From the IMG/VR virus record IMGVR_UViG_3300000292_000175: a DNA stretch of 22,993 bases, one strand, 5' to 3'. The position numbers and the translations under genes were made by a program. The stretch comes from a virus (taxonomy: Duplodnaviria; Heunggongvirae; Uroviricota; Caudoviricetes). Positions 2,765 to 20,164 of the stretch are shown in pieces. How positions within the stretch are numbered: position 1 is the first letter of the stretch; each line of letters starts with the position of its first letter. The notes under the pieces are model-generated. The model saw nothing but the letters and a program-made list of their open reading frames with translations, ran no database searches and was not told where the DNA came from.

Positions 2765-2939
2765 AGAACAACCCATTATCAAATACAAGGCCCGACATGA
2801 AAACGCCAGAAAAAGGCATTTTCGGACACTTTCATGTCGGACCTTTACGGATGCAATATTAAAAAAAACAAAAAGTTATATTCGAGAAGTACCGACACGA
2901 TTTTCCCTGAAAAATTTTCATAAATAGTGAAAAACCGCG

Positions 2940-2951
2940 AGGTCGCCGCCC
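2940..2951 (-). other. cos: cosN 12-nt cohesive-end site of a lambda-type cos; cosB lies between here and the nu1 start (about 2765-2939), cosQ side about 2952-2990
   Basis: Minus strand reads caggttacg-GGGCGGCGACCT-cgcggtttttcactatttatgaaaatttt, matching the lambda cos junction (right end ...GTTACG, then left end GGGCGGCGACCTCGCGGGTTTTCGCTATTTATGAAAATTTTCC) as I recall it. Confidence 0.85.
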
Positions 2952-3099
2952 CGTAACCTGTTGGATCGACGGAAAGGACCCGAAAACGAGAATAATTATC
3001 ACTTACAGCAAGAATCGAATCTGATCTATTATGGTGCTTGCTATTATGTGCCGGCACAAGTGCGTCGTTTACCGTCATTTCACACAGAGGCATCATCAA

Positions 3100-3351
3100 A
3101 TGAAAATCAGAAATATTCTCGCTATCTCCCTTGCGACATCATCCTTCAGTTGCCTGGCATTTAAATCCTCGCCCAATGTGCTACCAGGACCAACGAATCA
3201 ACTAACTGCGGTAGAAAGTAAAATTATCGGACATTTTTATGCCCCACACAGTACATTACCCGGAACAACCATCACAGGGACATGTGACGCCTCCCCCGTC
3301 CCGGGATGCACCTGTCCGTTTTGTACTATGCTGCGTAGCCAAAACCGATAA
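3100..3351 (+). CDS. Hypothetical small secreted Cys-rich protein (signal peptide predicted by eye)
   Basis: GAGG 8 nt upstream of ATG at 3100. N-terminus MKIRNILAISLATSSFSCLA looks like a Sec signal peptide; C-terminus has TCDASPVPGCTCPFC. No family recognised. Confidence 0.4.
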   Translation: MKIRNILAISLATSSFSCLAFKSSPNVLPGPTNQLTAVESKIIGHFYAPHSTLPGTTITGTCDASPVPGCTCPFCTMLRSQNR

Positions 3352-3788
3352 CATCCGCATTTACCTGGTATTCCATGATGAGTTCACGCAGCGACTGATA
3401 GAGGAAGGAAAGATGGTTAGTAAAAGCAAGGCGCATTGCCGCCGCATGCTGCAGGCATTGCAACAGACGAGAGCAGGTATTTTTGACCAGTTGGAAAACT
3501 GCCAGCATACTTTGCCCGAGTATATCGCCATCTCATCGGAAACCAGTGCAACTCTTATTCATCGGGTTCCNNNNNNNNNNNNNNNNNNNNNNNNNNNNNN
3601 NNNNNNNNNNNNNNNNNNNNNNNNNNNNNNNNNNNNNNNNNNNNACCAGAGAAAAAGAAGAAATGAACAGTGAGGCGTTGTGTGGCATACAACGCCTTCT
3701 TCCATCATTCCTCGTCAGCCATGACAAAAATATAACCGCTGGCTCTTTCATTTTTCTCCTGCTTCCAGCCCCTCTCTACCTGGAAGCA

Positions 3789-4115
3789 TCAAGGACGTGA
3801 CGGCGTAAAGATAAATTGTCTCTTCACTCCCTGACAGGGGCGATTCTTTTCAAATCGCCATTTCGCCATGGCCTTCACCACTTCATCACGAAACAAATTA
3901 TGAGGCTCTGAGCGGAGAAAAACGATCCGTGTCACAGTCCCATCAGCACCAATATCGAACTTAACCTCAACCAGCCCCTTGATATAATTTGCTGCAGCAT
4001 ATTCCGGATATCGTGGATACACCGTCACTAATTGCCGGGGCTCATCAGCTTTTTGCTGCGAGCATCCCACTGCCAGGACAGATAACAGAAAAAGTAGTAA
4101 AAGGCGTCTTTTCAT
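3789..4115 (-). CDS. Lipoprotein with TonB C-terminal-like domain
   Basis: Start taken at MKRRLLLLFLLSVLAVGC (lipobox LAVGC). C-terminal region YPRYPEYAAANYIKGLVEVKFDIGADGTVTRIVFL...AKWRF fits the TonB_C pattern. Confidence 0.55.
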   Translation of the reverse strand: MKRRLLLLFLLSVLAVGCSQQKADEPRQLVTVYPRYPEYAAANYIKGLVEVKFDIGADGTVTRIVFLRSEPHNLFRDEVVKAMAKWRFEKNRPCQGVKRQFIFTPSRP

Positions 4116-4595
4116 TTTTATTCCTACGGGTCTTATTCTGACAATATATCCTGTGTTCCAGACTGCCACATCACCACATCCTGTGCCATTATCTGACTCA
4201 CATTACATACATCGCATCGGGATACAGTAGTAGCACTTTCTGTAATACAGCTTCCTGTTTCTTCCACCATCGCACCGGGATAAACCCGCGAATCATTAAC
4301 GCGGTAAAAACCCGGTGTGCATCGTTTTTAATTATTCCCGCACACTCACGCAGAAGGAATTCCCCGTCGGGCTACGGTCATGGTTAATGCGGGAATACGG
4401 CGACGATACAGCGCAGCTAAAAGGGTAATGGACGGATAGACCGGTTTATTTCATTCCACAGGATTCTGAGTGTCCCCAACTTCCTCCAATAGTCTGAGCC
4501 CACCTGTGTAGTTTTAATTTTCATCAATCCATTTAACTATCGTTTAATTGTTGTCACATAGGATTCTGCCGTTTTTAACAATGCAGGATAATAAG

Positions 4596-4889
4596 ATGAA
4601 AAAAATGTTGTTTTCTGCCGCTCTGGCAATGCTTATTACAGGATGTGCTCAACAGACGTTTACTGTTGGAAACAAACCTACAGCAGTAACACCAAAGGAA
4701 ACCATCACCCATCATTTCTTCGTTTCGGGAATTGGGCAGAAGAAAACTGTCGATGCAGCAAAAATTTGTGGTGGTGCAGAAAATGTTGTTAAAACAGAAA
4801 CCCAGCAAACATTCGTAAATGGATTGCTCGGTTTTATTACTTTAGGCATTTATACTCCGCTGGAAGCGCGTGTGTATTGCTCACAATAA
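4596..4889 (+). CDS. bor: Bor lipoprotein (serum-resistance lipoprotein)
   Basis: 97-aa product MKKMLFSAALAMLITGCAQQTFTV...LEARVYCSQ, near-identical to lambda Bor as recalled. Opposite strand to the lysis genes, as in lambda. Confidence 0.92.
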   Translation: MKKMLFSAALAMLITGCAQQTFTVGNKPTAVTPKETITHHFFVSGIGQKKTVDAAKICGGAENVVKTETQQTFVNGLLGFITLGIYTPLEARVYCSQ

Positions 4890-6253: not shown

Positions 6254-6679
6254 AAGCTGTGTGACGAAGTAACCACTCTTAACAGCATAACCAATTTTTT
6301 ACGTACGTAAACTACTAAATGATATTTGTGAGAATGCCACCGAGTGTTCAAAACACCACCACAAATGCATAAGAAAACTTCAACAAATAACCAGTTAATA
6401 ATTTCCGATGTTATTTTTAGTTTGTTTAAATTAAGCTAAAGAATTATAGAGCACTTATAAATAAGTGCCATTAATATAAATTAGCTAATAGATTTATTTT
6501 TGTTCAGACAAGAGCCATGAATAGGATTAGATAGAAAAGGTTCAGATAAAAATAGAGATCTACTTCACAAATTAAATGAGAAACTAAAACTTACATCTTG
6601 AAATAATCACATTGATTAGATGAATATTTATCGCGCAGTGACATCATTTTTTAATAATAGTTCAAAAAAAGGGCGTACA

Positions 6680-7762
6680 ATGAAAAAATTAACAGTGGCA
6701 ATTTCTGCTGTAGCTGCATCAGTACTGATGGCGATGTCTGCTCAGGCAGCTGAAATTTATAATAAAGACAGTAACAAGCTGGATCTATACGGGAAAGTTA
6801 ATGCCAAGCACTACTTCTCCTCTAATGATGCAGATGATGGTGATACTACTTATGCCCGTCTTGGCTTCAAAGGTGAAACCCAAATCAACGATCAACTGAC
6901 TGGTTTCGGTCAGTGGGAATATGAATTCAAAGGCAACCGTGCTGAATCTCAAGGTTCTTCCAAAGACAAAACCCGTCTTGCATTTGCAGGCCTGAAATTT
7001 GGTGATTACGGCTCAATCGATTACGGCCGTAACTACGGTGTAGCATACGACATCGGTGCGTGGACTGACGTTCTGCCAGAATTCGGTGGTGATACCTGGA
7101 CCCAAACAGATGTGTTCATGACTGGTCGCACTACTGGTGTTGCAACTTATCGTAACAACGACTTCTTTGGTCTGGTCGATGGCCTGAACTTTGCTGCTCA
7201 GTATCAGGGTAAAAATGACCGCACTGACGTAACTGAAGCCAATGGTGATGGTTTCGGTTTCTCCACTACTTATGAGTATGAAGGATTCGGCGTGGGTGCA
7301 ACCTATGCTAAATCAGATCGCACTGACGGTCAGGTCGCCTATGGTAAGAGCAAATTCAATGCCTCCGGCAAAAATGCGGAAGTATGGGCTGCAGGCCTGA
7401 AATATGATGCGAACAATATCTATCTGGCTACCACATATTCTGAAACTCAGAATATGACCGTTTTTGGTAATAACCATATTGCAAACAAAGCACAAAACTT
7501 TGAAGCAGTAGCACAATATCAGTTTGACTTCGGTCTGCGTCCATCTGTTGCTTACCTTCAGTCAAAAGGTAAAGACCTTGGTGTTCATGGTGACCGAGAC
7601 TTAGTCAAGTATGTCGATGTCGGTGCTACTTACTACTTTAATAAAAACATGTCCACTTTTGTTGATTACAAAATCAACTTAATTGACGATAGTAAGTTTA
7701 CCAAAACAGCTGGTATTGATACCGACGACATCGTCGCTGTAGGTCTGGTTTATCAGTTCTAA
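6680..7762 (+). CDS. nmpC: Outer-membrane general porin (OmpC/OmpF family), prophage-borne NmpC/Lc type
   Basis: 360 aa with signal peptide [23 protein letters not shown], porin hallmarks ([25 protein letters not shown]-terminal VAVGLVYQF). Opposite to Q and S, matching the DLP12 quuD-nmpC-essD layout. Confidence 0.9.
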
Positions 7763-11669: not shown

Positions 11670-12643
11670 AAATCCACCCCGTAAATCCAGTCAGTGTTTG
11701 TCAGGTCGAGTTTTGGTTTGCAGGCTGTCACACCTGCCTGTTGCTTGTTACGGTTGATTTCGAGCTGGGTCCACTTGTCGCGGAGTTTGGCCGGGCTCAG
11801 CACGTTACCGGACCAGAAGTTGTCCTGGCATGCCCAGCGGAACAGTACACACATGTCGCGATGGTTACGTCCGTCACGTTCACGCATCAGGCGGATATCG
11901 TTAGCCCACCCTGCAAAATTCGGTTTTCTGGCTGATGGCGCGATGGTCTTCACCATGTCAAACATCCATTCTGCGGCGGTCAGGTCTTCTGCTGTCCCCC
12001 ACTTGCTGCCGCTCTGAATTGCAGCATCCGGTTTCACCACAGAAAGGTCGTTTTCTGGCTGGTCAGAGGATTCGCCAGAATTCTCTGACGAATAATCTTT
12101 TCTTTTTTCTTTTGTAATAGTGTCTTTTGTGTCCCCCTGTTTTGAGGGATAGCAATCCCCCAATTTGAGGGATGTTTTATCCCTCGTTTTAGGGGATTTT
12201 CCCTCGTTTTGAGGGATACACCATTCTGAGATGTTTTTATTTGGTCCAAACATGCCGCCTTGCTGCTTGATAATATTCATTCTGACGAGTTCTAACTTGG
12301 CTTCATTGCACCGTTTGACGGGTAACTTTGTAATCTCGCTAAGTTGAGAATCGGTGATTCTGTCCATTGGTTTATTCCATCCATAGGTTTTACGCAGAAT
12401 GGCAAGCAGCACTTTAAACTGTCGCTTGGTCAGATCTGCGCCTGAATAAGCCTCAAGCAGNNNNNNNNNNNNNNNNNNNNNNNNNNNNNNNNNNNNNNNN
12501 NNNNNNNNNNNNNNNNNNNNNNNNNNNNNNNNNNNNNNNNNNNNNNNNNNNNTGGCGTAACCATCATCGAGATCTGCCACATTACGCTCCTGTTTGGCAA
12601 AGTTACCTCTGCAGAAGTTGAGTATTTTTGCTGTATTTGTCAT
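11666..12643 (-). CDS. O: Replication initiator O (contains ori-lambda); interrupted by N-run 12461-12552
   Basis: MTNTAKILNF...LLEAYSGADLTKRQFKVLLAILRKTYGWNKPMDRITDSQLSEITKLPVKRCNEAK... matches lambda O as recalled. True length unknown because of the N-run. Confidence 0.9.
   Translation of the reverse strand: MTNTAKILNFCRGNFAKQERNVADLDDGYAXXXXXXXXXXXXXXXXXXXXXXXXXXXXXXXLLEAYSGADLTKRQFKVLLAILRKTYGWNKPMDRITDSQLSEITKLPVKRCNEAKLELVRMNIIKQQGGMFGPNKNISEWCIPQNEGKSPKTRDKTSLKLGDCYPSKQGDTKDTITKEKRKDYSSENSGESSDQPENDLSVVKPDAAIQSGSKWGTAEDLTAAEWMFDMVKTIAPSARKPNFAGWANDIRLMRERDGRNHRDMCVLFRWACQDNFWSGNVLSPAKLRDKWTQLEINRNKQQAGVTACKPKLDLTNTDWIYGVDL
12085..12217 (-). repeat. ori: ori-lambda: four about 19-bp iterons (12132-12217) plus adjacent AT-rich region (about 12085-12130) inside O
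   Basis: Four tandem inverted-repeat units tccccctgttttgagggat / atcccccaatttgagggat / atccctcgttttaggggat / tccctcgttttgagggat, followed in the O sense by ttctttttcttttgtaatag. Confidence 0.85.
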
Positions 12644-19907: not shown

Positions 19908-20164
19908 CCCATCCTCACGATAATATCCGGGTAGGCGCGATCACTTTCGTCTACTCCGTNNNNNNNNNNNNNNNNNNNNNNNNNNNNNNNNNNNNNNNNN
20001 NNNNNNNNNNNNNNNNNNNNNNNNNNNNNNNNNNNNNNNNAAAGCGAGGCTGGGTATTTCACGGTCTTTCTGTTATCCGAAATCCGCTGAAAGCCCAGCG
20101 GCTGGCTGAGGAGATAAATAATAAACGGGGGGCGGTATGCACAAAGCATCTCCTGTTGAGTTAA
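19898..20164 (+). CDS. Lambda orf60a-like small protein, interrupted by N-run 19960-20040
   Basis: [20 protein letters not shown]...[40 protein letters not shown]; true length unknown. Confidence 0.5.

Follow-up and report, generated by a model that had tools for sequence, protein, structure and literature searches.

In the viral (Caudoviricetes) DNA analysed here (IMG/VR record IMGVR_UViG_3300000292_000175; 22,993 nucleotides, hereafter the window), the interval between cos and the neighbouring lipoprotein gene is crossed by competing open reading frames on both strands, and the question it raises is which of them are genes and what the products might do. The original prediction had placed ORFs at 3100–3351 (+), from 3413 (+) into a run of Ns at 3571–3644, and at 3326–3508 (−), next to a lipoprotein gene at 3789–4115 (−); all of these were found exactly there. 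The elements considered below are as follows.

2940–2951, no strand: cosN, 12-nt cohesive end (read from sequence)
2975–2981, no strand: cosQ, packaging termination subsite (annotated in OL657228 at L001 24–30)
2987–3001, no strand: degenerate 7-1-7 palindrome TGATAATnATTATCA, 13/15, Fur-box-like (motif scan of the window)
3039–3047, +: candidate extended −10, TGcTATTAT, inferred for the 83-aa gene (read from sequence)
3042–3061, +: putative decayed Zur operator TATTATGTGCCGGCACAAGT, left half-site intact, centre and right half lost (alignment A5)
3086–3090, +: Shine–Dalgarno sequence AGAGG, 9 nt before the ATG at 3100 (read from sequence)
3100–3351, +: 83-aa gene, product small, predicted to be exported, with four Cys invariant (homologues, dN/dS)
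3100–3159, +: signal peptide, residues 1–20, MKIRNILAISLATSSFSCLA (predicted SPase I cleavage A20|F21)
3283–3324, +: C-terminal C-x7-C-x-C-x2-C motif (C62, C70, C72, C75; alignment)
3326–3508, −: 60-aa ORF, WP_000881610.1 / CPT_21_75, weak ribosome-binding site (RefSeq and phage 21 annotation)
3413–3666, +: 59-aa orphan ORF (MVSKSK...PPEKKKK), N-interrupted (reconstructed from phage 21, L001 462–641)
3571–3644, no strand: run of 74 Ns, an assembly, scaffolding or masking artefact (comparison with L001, L002 and L074)
3672–3698, no strand: 12-bp GC-rich hairpin, candidate bidirectional terminator (folding)
3789–4115, −: TonB_C lipoprotein, 108 aa, a neighbouring moron outside the unit (Pfam TonB_C, E = 7e-13)

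Competing reading frames next to cos

Judged by its identity to reference records, the window represents a lambdoid prophage of the phage 21 type, in the opposite orientation to the phage 21 map. It matches the phage 21 right end and the icd-located prophage of E. coli ATCC 11775 at 100% identity, as it does two phage 21 cos records (X02501, M81255) and OL657228 (L001), the last with coordinates that convert to those of the window by adding 2951. The cosN sequence, aggtcgccgccc, is the reverse complement of GGGCGGCGACCT. A search of Rfam returned no match in the region, base composition revealed no sharp island boundary, and the product of 3789–4115 is already annotated as a TonB family protein.

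The palindrome beyond cosQ is the single match to its motif in the window (two mismatches; 0.11 expected by chance). At first it was read as a Fur box serving the 83-aa gene, a perfect version being present in locus L012. This reading was withdrawn because lambda, which lacks the 83-aa gene, has a perfect copy, TGATAATGATTATCA, at the same place, 6 nt from cosQ, and because cosQ with the perfect palindrome occurs on at least 120 viral contigs, with the Cys-motif gene downstream in none of the 80 that were fetched. The palindrome is a feature of lambda-like phages and is not specific to the 83-aa gene.

We compared the flanks of the N-run with related genomes. In phage 21 (OL657228) and E. coli ATCC 11775 (L002) these flanks abut with zero bases between them, and the window segments on either side map to the adjacent positions 3965 and 3966 of L074. 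All 60 rows sampled from 1,224 module-bearing complete E. coli genomes had a span of 741–742 bp with no insertion. Two other N-runs in the window are not length-preserving, 92 Ns standing for 14 bases and 81 Ns for 3. These comparisons establish that the run at 3571–3644 stands for no sequence. The second ORF had been described as cut by the N-run; since the run amounts to zero bases, this description falls, and the ORF is a 59-aa orphan with its stop codon at 3664–3666.

Whether this orphan is itself a gene is more doubtful. Its start is preceded by GAGGAAGGA, with a strong Shine–Dalgarno sequence at 3401–3409, and it matches phrog_4843. A search of 5.8 billion proteins gave no diverged homologues, and in five genomes it shows one synonymous change, a frameshift and three non-synonymous changes. 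Sequences that look like diverged relatives of this ORF and of the 60-aa ORF (P0158, P0164 and P0168) were attributed to error-ridden assemblies, since the alignments of their contigs to phage 21 carry 22–61 gap openings. Both ORFs are orphans of a segment of about 360 bp. The 59-aa ORF may be co-transcribed with the 83-aa gene; that it is a real gene seems to us possible, with the balance somewhat against it.

An alternative for this segment is that the real gene of 3326–3700 is the minus-strand 60-aa ORF, together with a 40-aa ORF, expressed late from the pR' transcript. The minus-strand frames are listed as WP_000881610.1, CPT_21_75 and CPT_21_74 and are co-oriented with late transcription, and the 60-aa ORF has a slightly higher codon-usage score (0.135 versus 0.049 bits per codon) and matches phrog_3744. 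However, the 60-aa ORF has no diverged homologues among the same 5.8 billion proteins, and five variant genomes show no synonymous change, two non-synonymous changes and one nonsense change (E46*), a truncated 45-aa allele being present on about 998 contigs. PGAP alternates between the minus and plus ORFs from genome to genome, and the 40-aa ORF, within which the terminator-like hairpin falls, likewise has an allele with a premature stop. We therefore regard late expression of a minus-strand gene as improbable. The 60-aa ORF, often annotated by RefSeq, is probably spurious, and it and the 40-aa ORF are most likely annotation artefacts.

Conservation and predicted export of the 83-aa protein

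Homology and structure searches had been proposed as checks on the 83-aa product, and the first was productive. The protein has 22 homologues in the set of 5.8 billion proteins, and the family extends to 30 cluster representatives and 52 genomic loci in Enterobacterales. About 50 same-length homologues, with identity down to about 25%, are spread over at least 15 genera of Enterobacterales. Those in Salmonella, Klebsiella and Citrobacter are 54–98% identical and of the same length, and remoter ones occur in Serratia, Pectobacterium, Dickeya, Erwinia, Pantoea, Raoultella, Kosakonia, Phytobacter and Rahnella. The family is mainly single-copy and chromosomal, in plant-associated and environmental members of the order. 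The original prediction had named lack of conservation in related prophages as a ground for refutation. For the 83-aa gene that test fails, as it recurs in another prophage, in Klebsiella, in Salmonella and on many enterobacterial chromosomes; the 59-aa and 60-aa ORFs are without diverged homologues.

The pattern of divergence is that of a coding sequence. Values of dN/dS were 0.10–0.39 (dS was often saturated), those of off-frame controls were near or above 1, and differences by codon position (for example 18/11/51) were dominated by the third position. Across about 58 loci, to about 25% identity, the frame stays open at 76–88 codons, and an AGG..ATCATCA(A/G)ATGAAA block at the gene start is kept in four diverged loci. 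On these comparisons 3100–3351 (+) is established as a real gene under purifying selection, and nothing else from cos to the TonB-like gene is an evolutionarily conserved gene. That its frame is open by mere chance, in DNA beside cos that codes for nothing, as its absence from the inspected RefSeq PGAP and CPT/phage 21 annotations and its atypical codon usage (−0.14 bits per codon) might suggest, is hardly credible, since the 52 Enterobacterales loci, the diverged family with its maintained frame and the dN/dS values well below 1 against the off-frame controls already refute it. Codon-usage scoring did not discriminate between the frames, the 83-aa gene scoring worst and both orphan ORFs intermediate.

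Comparison with Pfam, NCBIfam, PHROGs and PDB sequences gave no match to the 83-aa protein, and a literature search on the peptide motif, Zur-regulated small proteins and the right-end ORFs of phage 21 found nothing specific. Structure prediction, the second check, gave little: two AlphaFold runs (alignments A1 and A2) reached a mean pLDDT of 50 and 57, values too low to lend the protein structural support.

The signal peptide and Cys tail first seen in the window copy stand up to comparison within the family. The N-terminus has a basic n-region (K2 and R4), followed by the hydrophobic ILAISLATSSF and then C-L-A|F, with small residues at −3 and −1 of the predicted cleavage site, and the tail ends in ...GTCDASPVPGCTCPFCTMLRSQNR. 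Invariant in 63 sequences are A20, F21, C62, G69, C70, C72, C75, L78 and R79. The precursor would use the Sec pathway, and the most likely cleavage, after Ala20, would give a mature periplasmic protein of about 60–63 aa with C-x7-C-x-C-x2-C-[TSA]-x-L-R in its C-terminal part. We infer processing by SPase I, rather than LspA, at an AxA|F site, because most of the family has Ala in place of Cys18 (ALAF, AMAF, AAAF) whereas A20 and F21 are invariant in 63/63.

It is possible that the copies of the phage and enteric clade depart from this pattern and are outer-membrane lipoproteins, processed by LspA on the N-terminal side of Cys18 (SSFS|C) and then lipidated. Cys18 is kept throughout the clade of E. 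coli, Salmonella, Klebsiella, Citrobacter and Enterobacter, in the first four within a permissive lipobox-like SFSC context that makes such processing of the phage copy conceivable, and automatic UniRef names of several members read 'Lipoprotein'; the mature product would still keep four free Cys. Set against this are the prevalence of Ala at position 18 in the wider family, the invariance of A20 and F21, and the residues at −3 and −2 (S and F), which fit poorly with the lipobox consensus L-[AS]-[GA]-C. On balance we consider lipidation unlikely, and soluble export after SPase I cleavage the better reading.

Probable capture next to cos, Zur operators and a proposed link to zinc

The carriage of the gene suggests how it came to lie here. 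In the prophage it sits between cosQ and the lysis genes, antisense to Nu1/A, the late operon and the lysis genes. The same cos-proximal antisense slot is occupied in a different lambdoid prophage with other neighbours (71% identity). A further copy lies in a cos remnant on a Klebsiella plasmid, the C. koseri copy adjoins icd, with what looks like a piece of cosN (ACCGCGAGGTCG) at its flank, and in a Salmonella island the gene and a bor homologue share a strand, 200 bp apart. DNA homology between the carrier loci is restricted to the 83-aa gene and cos. Neighbours of a virulence type accompany some copies, namely iss/bor and an OmpC-like porin gene in the prophage and SPATE, omptin and NEL effector genes in Salmonella.

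Among phage records the gene is rare (7/50,697). Of 5,426 complete E. coli genomes, 1,224 carry the module, among them those of Nissle 1917, the type strain and many ExPEC strains. A second allele in E. coli, of the P0005 type and 71% identical, is all but missing from the complete genomes of this species in RefSeq. The gene is thus found in the late region of the prophage, in some relatives and not in others, which on comparative grounds shows the phage gene to be accessory and cos-proximal, as a moron would be. An accessory slot next to cos had been proposed from the window itself, and this is borne out. Of the further proposal, a secreted Cys-rich peptide, the export signal and the cysteines survive as conserved features. 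It can be added that the peptide is no phage novelty and is very unlikely to be toxin-like: the moron is best explained as a captured copy from a chromosomal Enterobacterales family whose members have Zur operators. We envisage that lambda-like phages took the chromosomal gene into the slot just after cosQ, where it points against the late operon and faces the TonB_C lipoprotein gene across a common hairpin.

The chromosomal relatives offer a clue to regulation. We scanned the 200 nt upstream of each gene for the published E. coli Zur search motif (PMC6103462), TRWNAYRWTATAWYRTNWCA, allowing up to two mismatches. A match was present at 34/58 family loci, compared with 21/3,009 background windows (0.7%), and chromosomal members have a Zur-type box 40–120 nt upstream. 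Most of the other matches with up to two mismatches in 364 kb also look Zur-related, the clearest preceding aztD and ZnuA-type genes, and the boxes at these promoters served as a positive control for the scan. By operator evidence, the chromosomal family appears to belong to the Zur (zinc-starvation) regulon.

The same scan gave a different result for the window copy, where the best match in the 200 nt upstream has six mismatches, the background level. Alignment A5 nevertheless places the element at 3042–3061 in register with the C. koseri box TGTTATGTTATTACATAACT, which has two mismatches to the motif, and with the L012 box (three mismatches); the window element itself has eight, by direct count from the sequence. 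A Zur operator is therefore a property of the family and not of the phage copy. A consensus scan called no σ70 promoter upstream of the 83-aa gene, the sole nearby call overlapping the start codon. The candidate TGcTATTAT aligns with TGaTGTTAT inside the C. koseri Zur box, and it seems likely that in the phage-21 lineage the left half of the operator remains, overlapping a TGnTATTAT extended −10. Since half of the operator is lost, the phage copy is probably free of zinc control, and we suggest that it is probably expressed in the lysogen from its own promoter.

At the other end of the unit, the hairpin lies between the plus-strand frames (83 aa and 59 aa) and the convergent TonB_C gene, beginning 6 nt past the stop codon of the 59-aa ORF. 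For the 76-nt segment that bears it, the folding energy is −22.1 kcal/mol on the plus strand (z = −2.9) and −24.9 kcal/mol on the minus strand (z = −3.2); a consensus terminator scan did not call the hairpin because it has no clean T-run.

Gene neighbourhoods also point towards zinc. In 10/52 loci the family gene adjoins aztD, and in 7 of those a ZnuA-type zinc-uptake gene as well; neighbours were identified by match to PDB 6cmk for AztD (E = 1.6e-27), by Pfam for the ZnuA family (E = 1e-81) and by neighbour clustering. The family gene is convergent with these neighbours, is not co-transcribed with aztD, and stands alone in most genomes. Overall, the explanation we favour, with moderate confidence, is that the 83-aa gene is a captured member of a Zur-controlled family and a real, exported, four-Cys moron. 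As to function, a role resting on this regulatory and neighbourhood association can be put forward tentatively: the product may be a disulfide-stabilised or Cys4-metal periplasmic protein that handles or captures zinc under scarcity. It might, for instance, pass zinc to ZnuA/AztC-type binding proteins, so that lysogens would gain an edge under host metal restriction. A point against metal binding through thiolates is that cysteines in the periplasm are as a rule oxidised and form disulfides. A more specific proposal, that the family is an unrecognised group of Zur-controlled periplasmic four-Cys mini-proteins which would be a new protein component of enterobacterial zinc acquisition, for example as a small zinc shuttle or buffer with ZnuA, AztC and AztD, captured by temperate lambda-like phages and freed from Zur repression in the phage-21 lineage, is, taken as a whole, rather unlikely. 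If it is true, about a fifth of sequenced E. coli would make a four-Cys protein whatever their zinc status, and the gene would be a fitness moron against host nutritional immunity.

Zinc starvation might instead be an in-host cue for a periplasmic protective factor that acts against a host defence protein and handles no metal. There is a precedent in the lysozyme inhibitor PliG, whose gene belongs to the E. coli Zur regulon (PMC6103462), and the 83-aa protein is likewise small and probably disulfide-bonded, with phage and island copies beside serum-resistance and envelope genes. The proposal is decidedly unlikely, however, given that the family shows no similarity to the PliG, Ivy or MliC families, that many carriers are plant or environmental bacteria and that the aztD/znuA-type adjacency in 10 loci points to zinc itself. 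Less probable still is a secreted toxin-like or bacteriocin-like pre-pro-peptide with its active part in the Cys-rich C-terminus. The order of signal peptide, variable middle and conserved Cys-rich end is suggestive of one, as is a prophage moron slot among virulence-type neighbours, but no Pfam family, enterotoxins included, matched at E ≤ 1, and no immunity, export or maturation genes recur alongside. With a Sec signal alone, the protein lacks an evident path through the outer membrane. The family is chiefly a single-copy chromosomal one, of Enterobacterales from plants and the environment, and its Zur operators are more in keeping with a housekeeping stress response. Zinc handling in the periplasm is the function we prefer, with the reserve expressed above.

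Significance and comparison with known systems

Phage 21 is a classical model phage, and the sole conserved gene between its cos and TonB-like gene is unannotated there, the inspected annotations listing instead an overlapping antisense ORF that looks spurious. With the annotation corrected, phage-21-type lysogens would have one more accessory product, a small exported protein. The wider family is uncharacterised and widespread in Enterobacterales, and its operators place it in the zinc-starvation response, making it a concrete and cheap target for work on bacterial zinc economy. The phage copy also appears to exemplify the capture by a phage of a stress-regulon gene that then loses its operator.

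Several groups of small Cys-containing proteins resemble the 83-aa product in part. In the thioredoxin-fold CxxC oxidoreductases (DsbA/Grx, CP[FHY]C) the fold needs about 80 residues or more around the CxxC, whereas in the 83-aa protein only 8 residues separate CPFC from the C-terminus, and the mature chain has about 63 aa; the protein has no Pfam or NCBIfam match, and its structure models are of low confidence. The STa/STb precursors share with it a short Sec-signal precursor, a Cys-rich C-terminus and location on a mobile element. The 83-aa family differs in its Cys spacing, is chromosomal and widespread in non-pathogens and gives no sign of release, and it has no Pfam match at E ≤ 1 and no PDB sequence match. 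Bufferins are Sec-exported Cys RiPPs associated with metal stress (DUF2282 precursors with an MNIO enzyme), and small size, signal peptide, conserved Cys and metal-stress context are common to both; in contrast to bufferins, the 83-aa protein has no Pfam match, and no modifying-enzyme gene recurs nearby.

Compared with ZinT, ZnuA, AztD and PliG, periplasmic proteins of the Zur regulon, the family is likewise Zur-boxed and exported, and adjacent to aztD in 10 loci. It has no sequence or demonstrable fold similarity to them; its mature chain is only about 60 aa, with four Cys rather than His/Asp/Glu ligands, and the phage copy is without an operator. Accessory membership of AztABCD or ZnuABC clusters would need conserved linkage and co-transcription, and what is seen is aztD beside the gene in 10/52 loci.

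The closest parallels in position are the lambda-type morons of the lysis-to-cos interval (bor/iss, with lom further left), which are also accessory, located in the late region and patchy among relatives. Like bor, the 83-aa gene is antisense to late transcription and its product is predicted to be targeted to the envelope. The 83-aa family is unrelated to bor, iss and lom, and its product appears to be a soluble Sec substrate rather than a clear lipoprotein; it differs from them, too, in that its chromosomal ancestors carry Zur operators.

The 83-aa gene and its product

Apart from one N-run, positions 2800-4200 of the window match the phage 21 right end (OL657228) with 100% identity, in inverted orientation relative to the phage map, and are equally identical to a prophage shared by E. 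coli ATCC 11775, Nissle 1917 and many ExPEC strains. The prophage insertion site is icd. The features of this arm are as follows.

Minus strand: terminase small subunit gene
2940-2951: cosN (aggtcgccgccc)
2975-2981: cosQ
3100-3351, plus: 83-aa gene
3326-3508, minus: 60-aa ORF (phrog_3744; WP_000881610.1; CPT_21_75)
3413-3666, plus: 59-aa ORF (phrog_4843)
3789-4115, minus: TonB_C-domain lipoprotein gene
4548-4889, plus: iss/bor, beyond the TonB_C gene
Minus strand: Rz/R/S lysis genes, beyond iss/bor

The 83-aa ORF had been proposed as worth a homology search, and this proved rewarding, with same-length relatives in many genera of Enterobacterales and low dN/dS. Against 5.8 billion proteins we found 22 relatives, most of 82-84 aa and with 54-98% identity, in E. 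coli, Salmonella, Klebsiella and Citrobacter. When 1.84 billion cluster representatives were searched with a profile, 30 family members (most 79-85 aa) emerged, and screening one genome for every species gave 52 loci in Serratia, Pectobacterium, Dickeya, Erwinia, Pantoea, Raoultella, Klebsiella, Kosakonia, Phytobacter, Rahnella, Samsonia and other genera. When the window copy was compared with five diverged copies of the same length, differences were dominated by third codon positions (for example 18/11/51) and dN/dS was 0.10-0.39, with dS often saturated. Shifted sense frames gave values near or above 1, while the antisense frame that shares third positions was also low, as expected. The conserved start lies at 3100 rather than at the ATG at 3031, with AGAGG and the conserved block ATCATCA(A/G)ATGAAA leading up to it. 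These comparisons indicate that the ORF is a real gene under selection.

The first 20 residues form a Sec signal (MK-R, a hydrophobic stretch, then C-L-A), and A20, F21, C62, G69, C70, C72, C75, L78 and R79 are invariant in a 63-sequence alignment with identities down to 25%. The export signal and the four invariant cysteines support the secreted, Cys-rich product foreseen in the original prediction. Most family members have Ala at -3 (ALA|F, AMA|F, AAA|F), which is typical of an SPase I site. In the clade of E. coli, Salmonella, Klebsiella and Citrobacter this residue is Cys18 in a weak lipobox-like context, and the window copy may be processed as a lipoprotein, although cleavage by SPase I is the more probable route. 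In the mature protein, about 63 aa long, the N-terminal half varies, a segment E-x2-[IL]-x3-F-Y-x2-H is moderately conserved, and the tail G-x-C-x3-P-x2-G-C-x-C-x2-C-[TSA]-x-L-R is invariant. AlphaFold models have low confidence (pLDDT 50 and 57). Two long, Asn/Ser/Thr-rich, eukaryote-like metagenomic proteins (P0041, P0043) carry four or five repeats of P[IL]PGCNCPKCT[NE]LRN, closely resembling the family's C-terminal GCxCPFCTxLR minus the first Cys; this may be convergence or a shared mini-motif.

No match was found in Pfam, NCBIfam, PHROG or the PDB, and family members are all named 'hypothetical' except for a few automatic 'Lipoprotein' entries. The protein lies outside every described family. 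The gene is unannotated in the phage 21 record and in all six RefSeq genomes examined, probably because its codon usage departs from that of the prophage, and represents a clear annotation correction.

Overlapping ORFs and N-runs

According to the original prediction, the ORF starting at 3413 was cut by an N-run. However, the 74 Ns at 3571-3644 stand for zero bases: the flanking 40-mers are contiguous in phage 21 and ATCC 11775, and the segments on either side map to neighbouring reference positions, 3965 and 3966. Without the Ns the ORF closes as 59 aa (MVSKSK...HRVPPEKKKK), with its stop at 3664-3666. Two further N-runs have counterparts in ATCC 11775, where 92 Ns inside the replication-protein gene (12461-12552) replace 14 bases (CATATTTGATAGTC) and 81 Ns inside the lambda exonuclease gene (19960-20040) replace three (TAC). 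All three look like scaffold gaps whose length was misjudged. From cosQ to the TonB_C gene the module measures 741 bp; 1,224 of 5,426 complete E. coli genomes carry it, 1,203 of them with at least 99% identity, and the span was 741-742 bp in all 60 carriers that were evenly sampled.

The 59-aa and 60-aa ORFs overlap on opposite strands and each is annotated in different genomes. For neither was a diverged homologue found among 5.8 billion proteins; the few apparent candidates were discarded, since they lay on error-ridden contigs. Across the 350-bp stretch 3326-3666, PGAP calls in RefSeq loci (L075-L079) are unstable: depending on the genome they give the 60-aa ORF on the minus strand, a 45-aa truncation of it, the plus-strand 59-aa ORF or fragments; the conserved 83-aa gene was never called in the genomes examined. 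In five variant E. coli genomes the 60-aa ORF shows no synonymous, two non-synonymous and one nonsense change (E46*). Because the 45-aa product of this allele is recorded on about 998 contigs, a very common haplotype can do without the full-length ORF, and it is very doubtful that this ORF is a gene. The 40-aa minus ORF (CPT_21_74), which contains a 12-bp GC-rich hairpin (3672-3698) located between the convergent 83-aa and TonB_C genes, also has a nonsense allele. The strong ribosome-binding site noted for the 59-aa ORF is indeed present (SD GAGGAAGGA, 3401-3409). This ORF begins 61 nt past the 83-aa gene with no structure between, and ends 6 nt before the hairpin. Its few polymorphisms, however, comprise one synonymous change, three non-synonymous changes and one frameshift. 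It could possibly be a real co-transcribed orphan; if not, and leaving aside the slight chance for the 60-aa ORF, neither would be a gene.

Zinc-related context of the family

The published E. coli Zur search motif TRWNAYRWTATAWYRTNWCA, as quoted in PMC6103462, was looked for in the 200 nt preceding the family gene at each of 58 loci. Matches with at most two mismatches occurred at 34 of the 58 loci, compared with 21 of 3,009 background windows from the same loci; at up to three mismatches the counts were 47 and 53, respectively. Results with a simpler consensus agreed with this. At least 11 genera are represented among the matches, which lie around -45 in Serratia, Pectobacterium, Samsonia and Citrobacter, and between -90 and -120 in Kosakonia, Phytobacter, Pantoea and Raoultella. 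The count is probably too low, since zero-mismatch motifs in two Dickeya loci (L050/L051; TGATATGTTATAACATAACA and TGTTATGTTATAACATAACA, at -214 and -258) fall just beyond the scan. In 364 kb of fetched loci, most other matches with at most two mismatches look Zur-related too, the clearest preceding aztD or ZnuA-type neighbours and serving as an internal positive control. Neighbour clustering identified a convergent 467-aa periplasmic protein in 10 loci, matching AztD structures (6cmk, E = 1.6e-27), and a 317-aa ZnuA-family protein in seven (E = 1e-81). We infer a role of the chromosomal family in the zinc-starvation response; no report of its assignment to the Zur regulon was found in the searchable literature. 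Other settings provide an anecdotal link to metals: FecI/FecR/TonB-dependent receptor genes in a Citrobacter, and Fur-family and CobW genes on a Klebsiella plasmid.

Alignment of cos-to-ATG regions showed that the upstream element has two mismatches to the Zur motif in the C. koseri copy and three in a second E. coli prophage (L012), and is decayed in the Klebsiella remnant and phage 21. In the window (3042-3061, TATTATGTGCCGGCACAAGT) the left half-site is kept and the centre has turned GC-rich. A plausible extended -10, TGcTATTAT (3039-3047), overlaps the half that is kept. The phage-21-type copy has lost its Zur operator and would be transcribed from this candidate promoter, free of Zur control.

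A few bases past cosQ lies a Fur-box-type 7-1-7 palindrome, TGATAATnATTATCA, matched at 13 of 15 positions in the window (2987-3001), perfect in lambda (NC_001416, 48452-48466) and the second E. coli prophage, and found near cosQ in at least 120 IMG/VR contigs (loci L081-L160 among them). A link to the 83-aa gene was ruled out by the perfect copy in lambda, which is without the gene. The cos paper PMC4669245 makes no mention of the palindrome, which is a candidate for a role in packaging or as an operator for antisense cos-proximal transcription.

Mobility and proposed role

Conservation in related prophages, on which the original prediction hinged, was found: in a different E. coli lambdoid prophage the gene is found at exactly the same place, immediately past cosQ and in antisense orientation to Nu1, while the remaining neighbours differ (DUF3950, a different lysis cassette). 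On a Klebsiella plasmid it adjoins a recognisable cos remnant; the C. koseri copy is next to icd, the gene where phage 21 attaches, and has an apparent cosN fragment (ACCGCGAGGTCG) at its flank. Island copies in S. enterica subsp. salamae, indica and diarizonae are 200 bp upstream of a bor homologue, amid SPATE, omptin and NEL-effector genes. Many genera have the gene on the chromosome, standing alone. Between phage 21 and the other mobile copies, similar DNA extends no further than the gene itself and about 50 bp of cos. The gene is carried by only seven of 50,697 phage records. Its recurrence in five settings, cos-linked in several, and its absence from lambda agree with the suspected cos-proximal moron site, and its accessory, cos-anchored mobility indicates that it is a moron. 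What stands of the secreted Cys-rich peptide near cos is this real gene of exported type; its companions fared less well, the 59-aa ORF being uncut and the 60-aa ORF having no diverged homologues and a common nonsense allele.

We propose that the gene is expressed in the lysogen from its own promoter and that the product, after SPase I processing, would be periplasmic. Its four cysteines would form either two disulfides holding a small fold or a Cys4 site. The most likely role, put forward tentatively, is handling or capture of zinc for ZnuA/AztC-type uptake. Much of the remaining probability goes to a periplasmic Zur-response protein whose role the sequence does not yet suggest; a PliG-like protective factor is improbable, and a toxin-like peptide more so. 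We provisionally class the gene as a phage moron and, at family level, as a small Zur-regulon envelope protein.

Other features of these regions deserve mention. The 108-aa TonB_C lipoprotein has an LAVGC lipobox and a TonB C-terminal domain (Pfam E = 7e-13); its PHROGs label, 'Rz-like spanin' (phrog_1267), looks like a mislabel. A phage-encoded free periplasmic TonB_C domain could disturb TonB-dependent uptake or phage/colicin entry. An OmpC-family porin gene (about 6620-7762, plus), between the lysis cassette and the Q antiterminator, is a further envelope moron on the same arm as iss/bor. The sole Rfam match in the window is the lambda cIII thermoregulator RNA element (RF01804, 17778-17836, plus, 88.5 bits). 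In the Salmonella island (L006/L016, about 4350-4400) a perfect Fur-box-like palindrome, AATGATAAAAATTATCATT, separates the 83-aa homologue from the bor homologue downstream and probably falls within the promoter region of the latter. The 83-aa gene itself resembles bor in being an envelope-directed moron in the interval between the lysis genes and cos.
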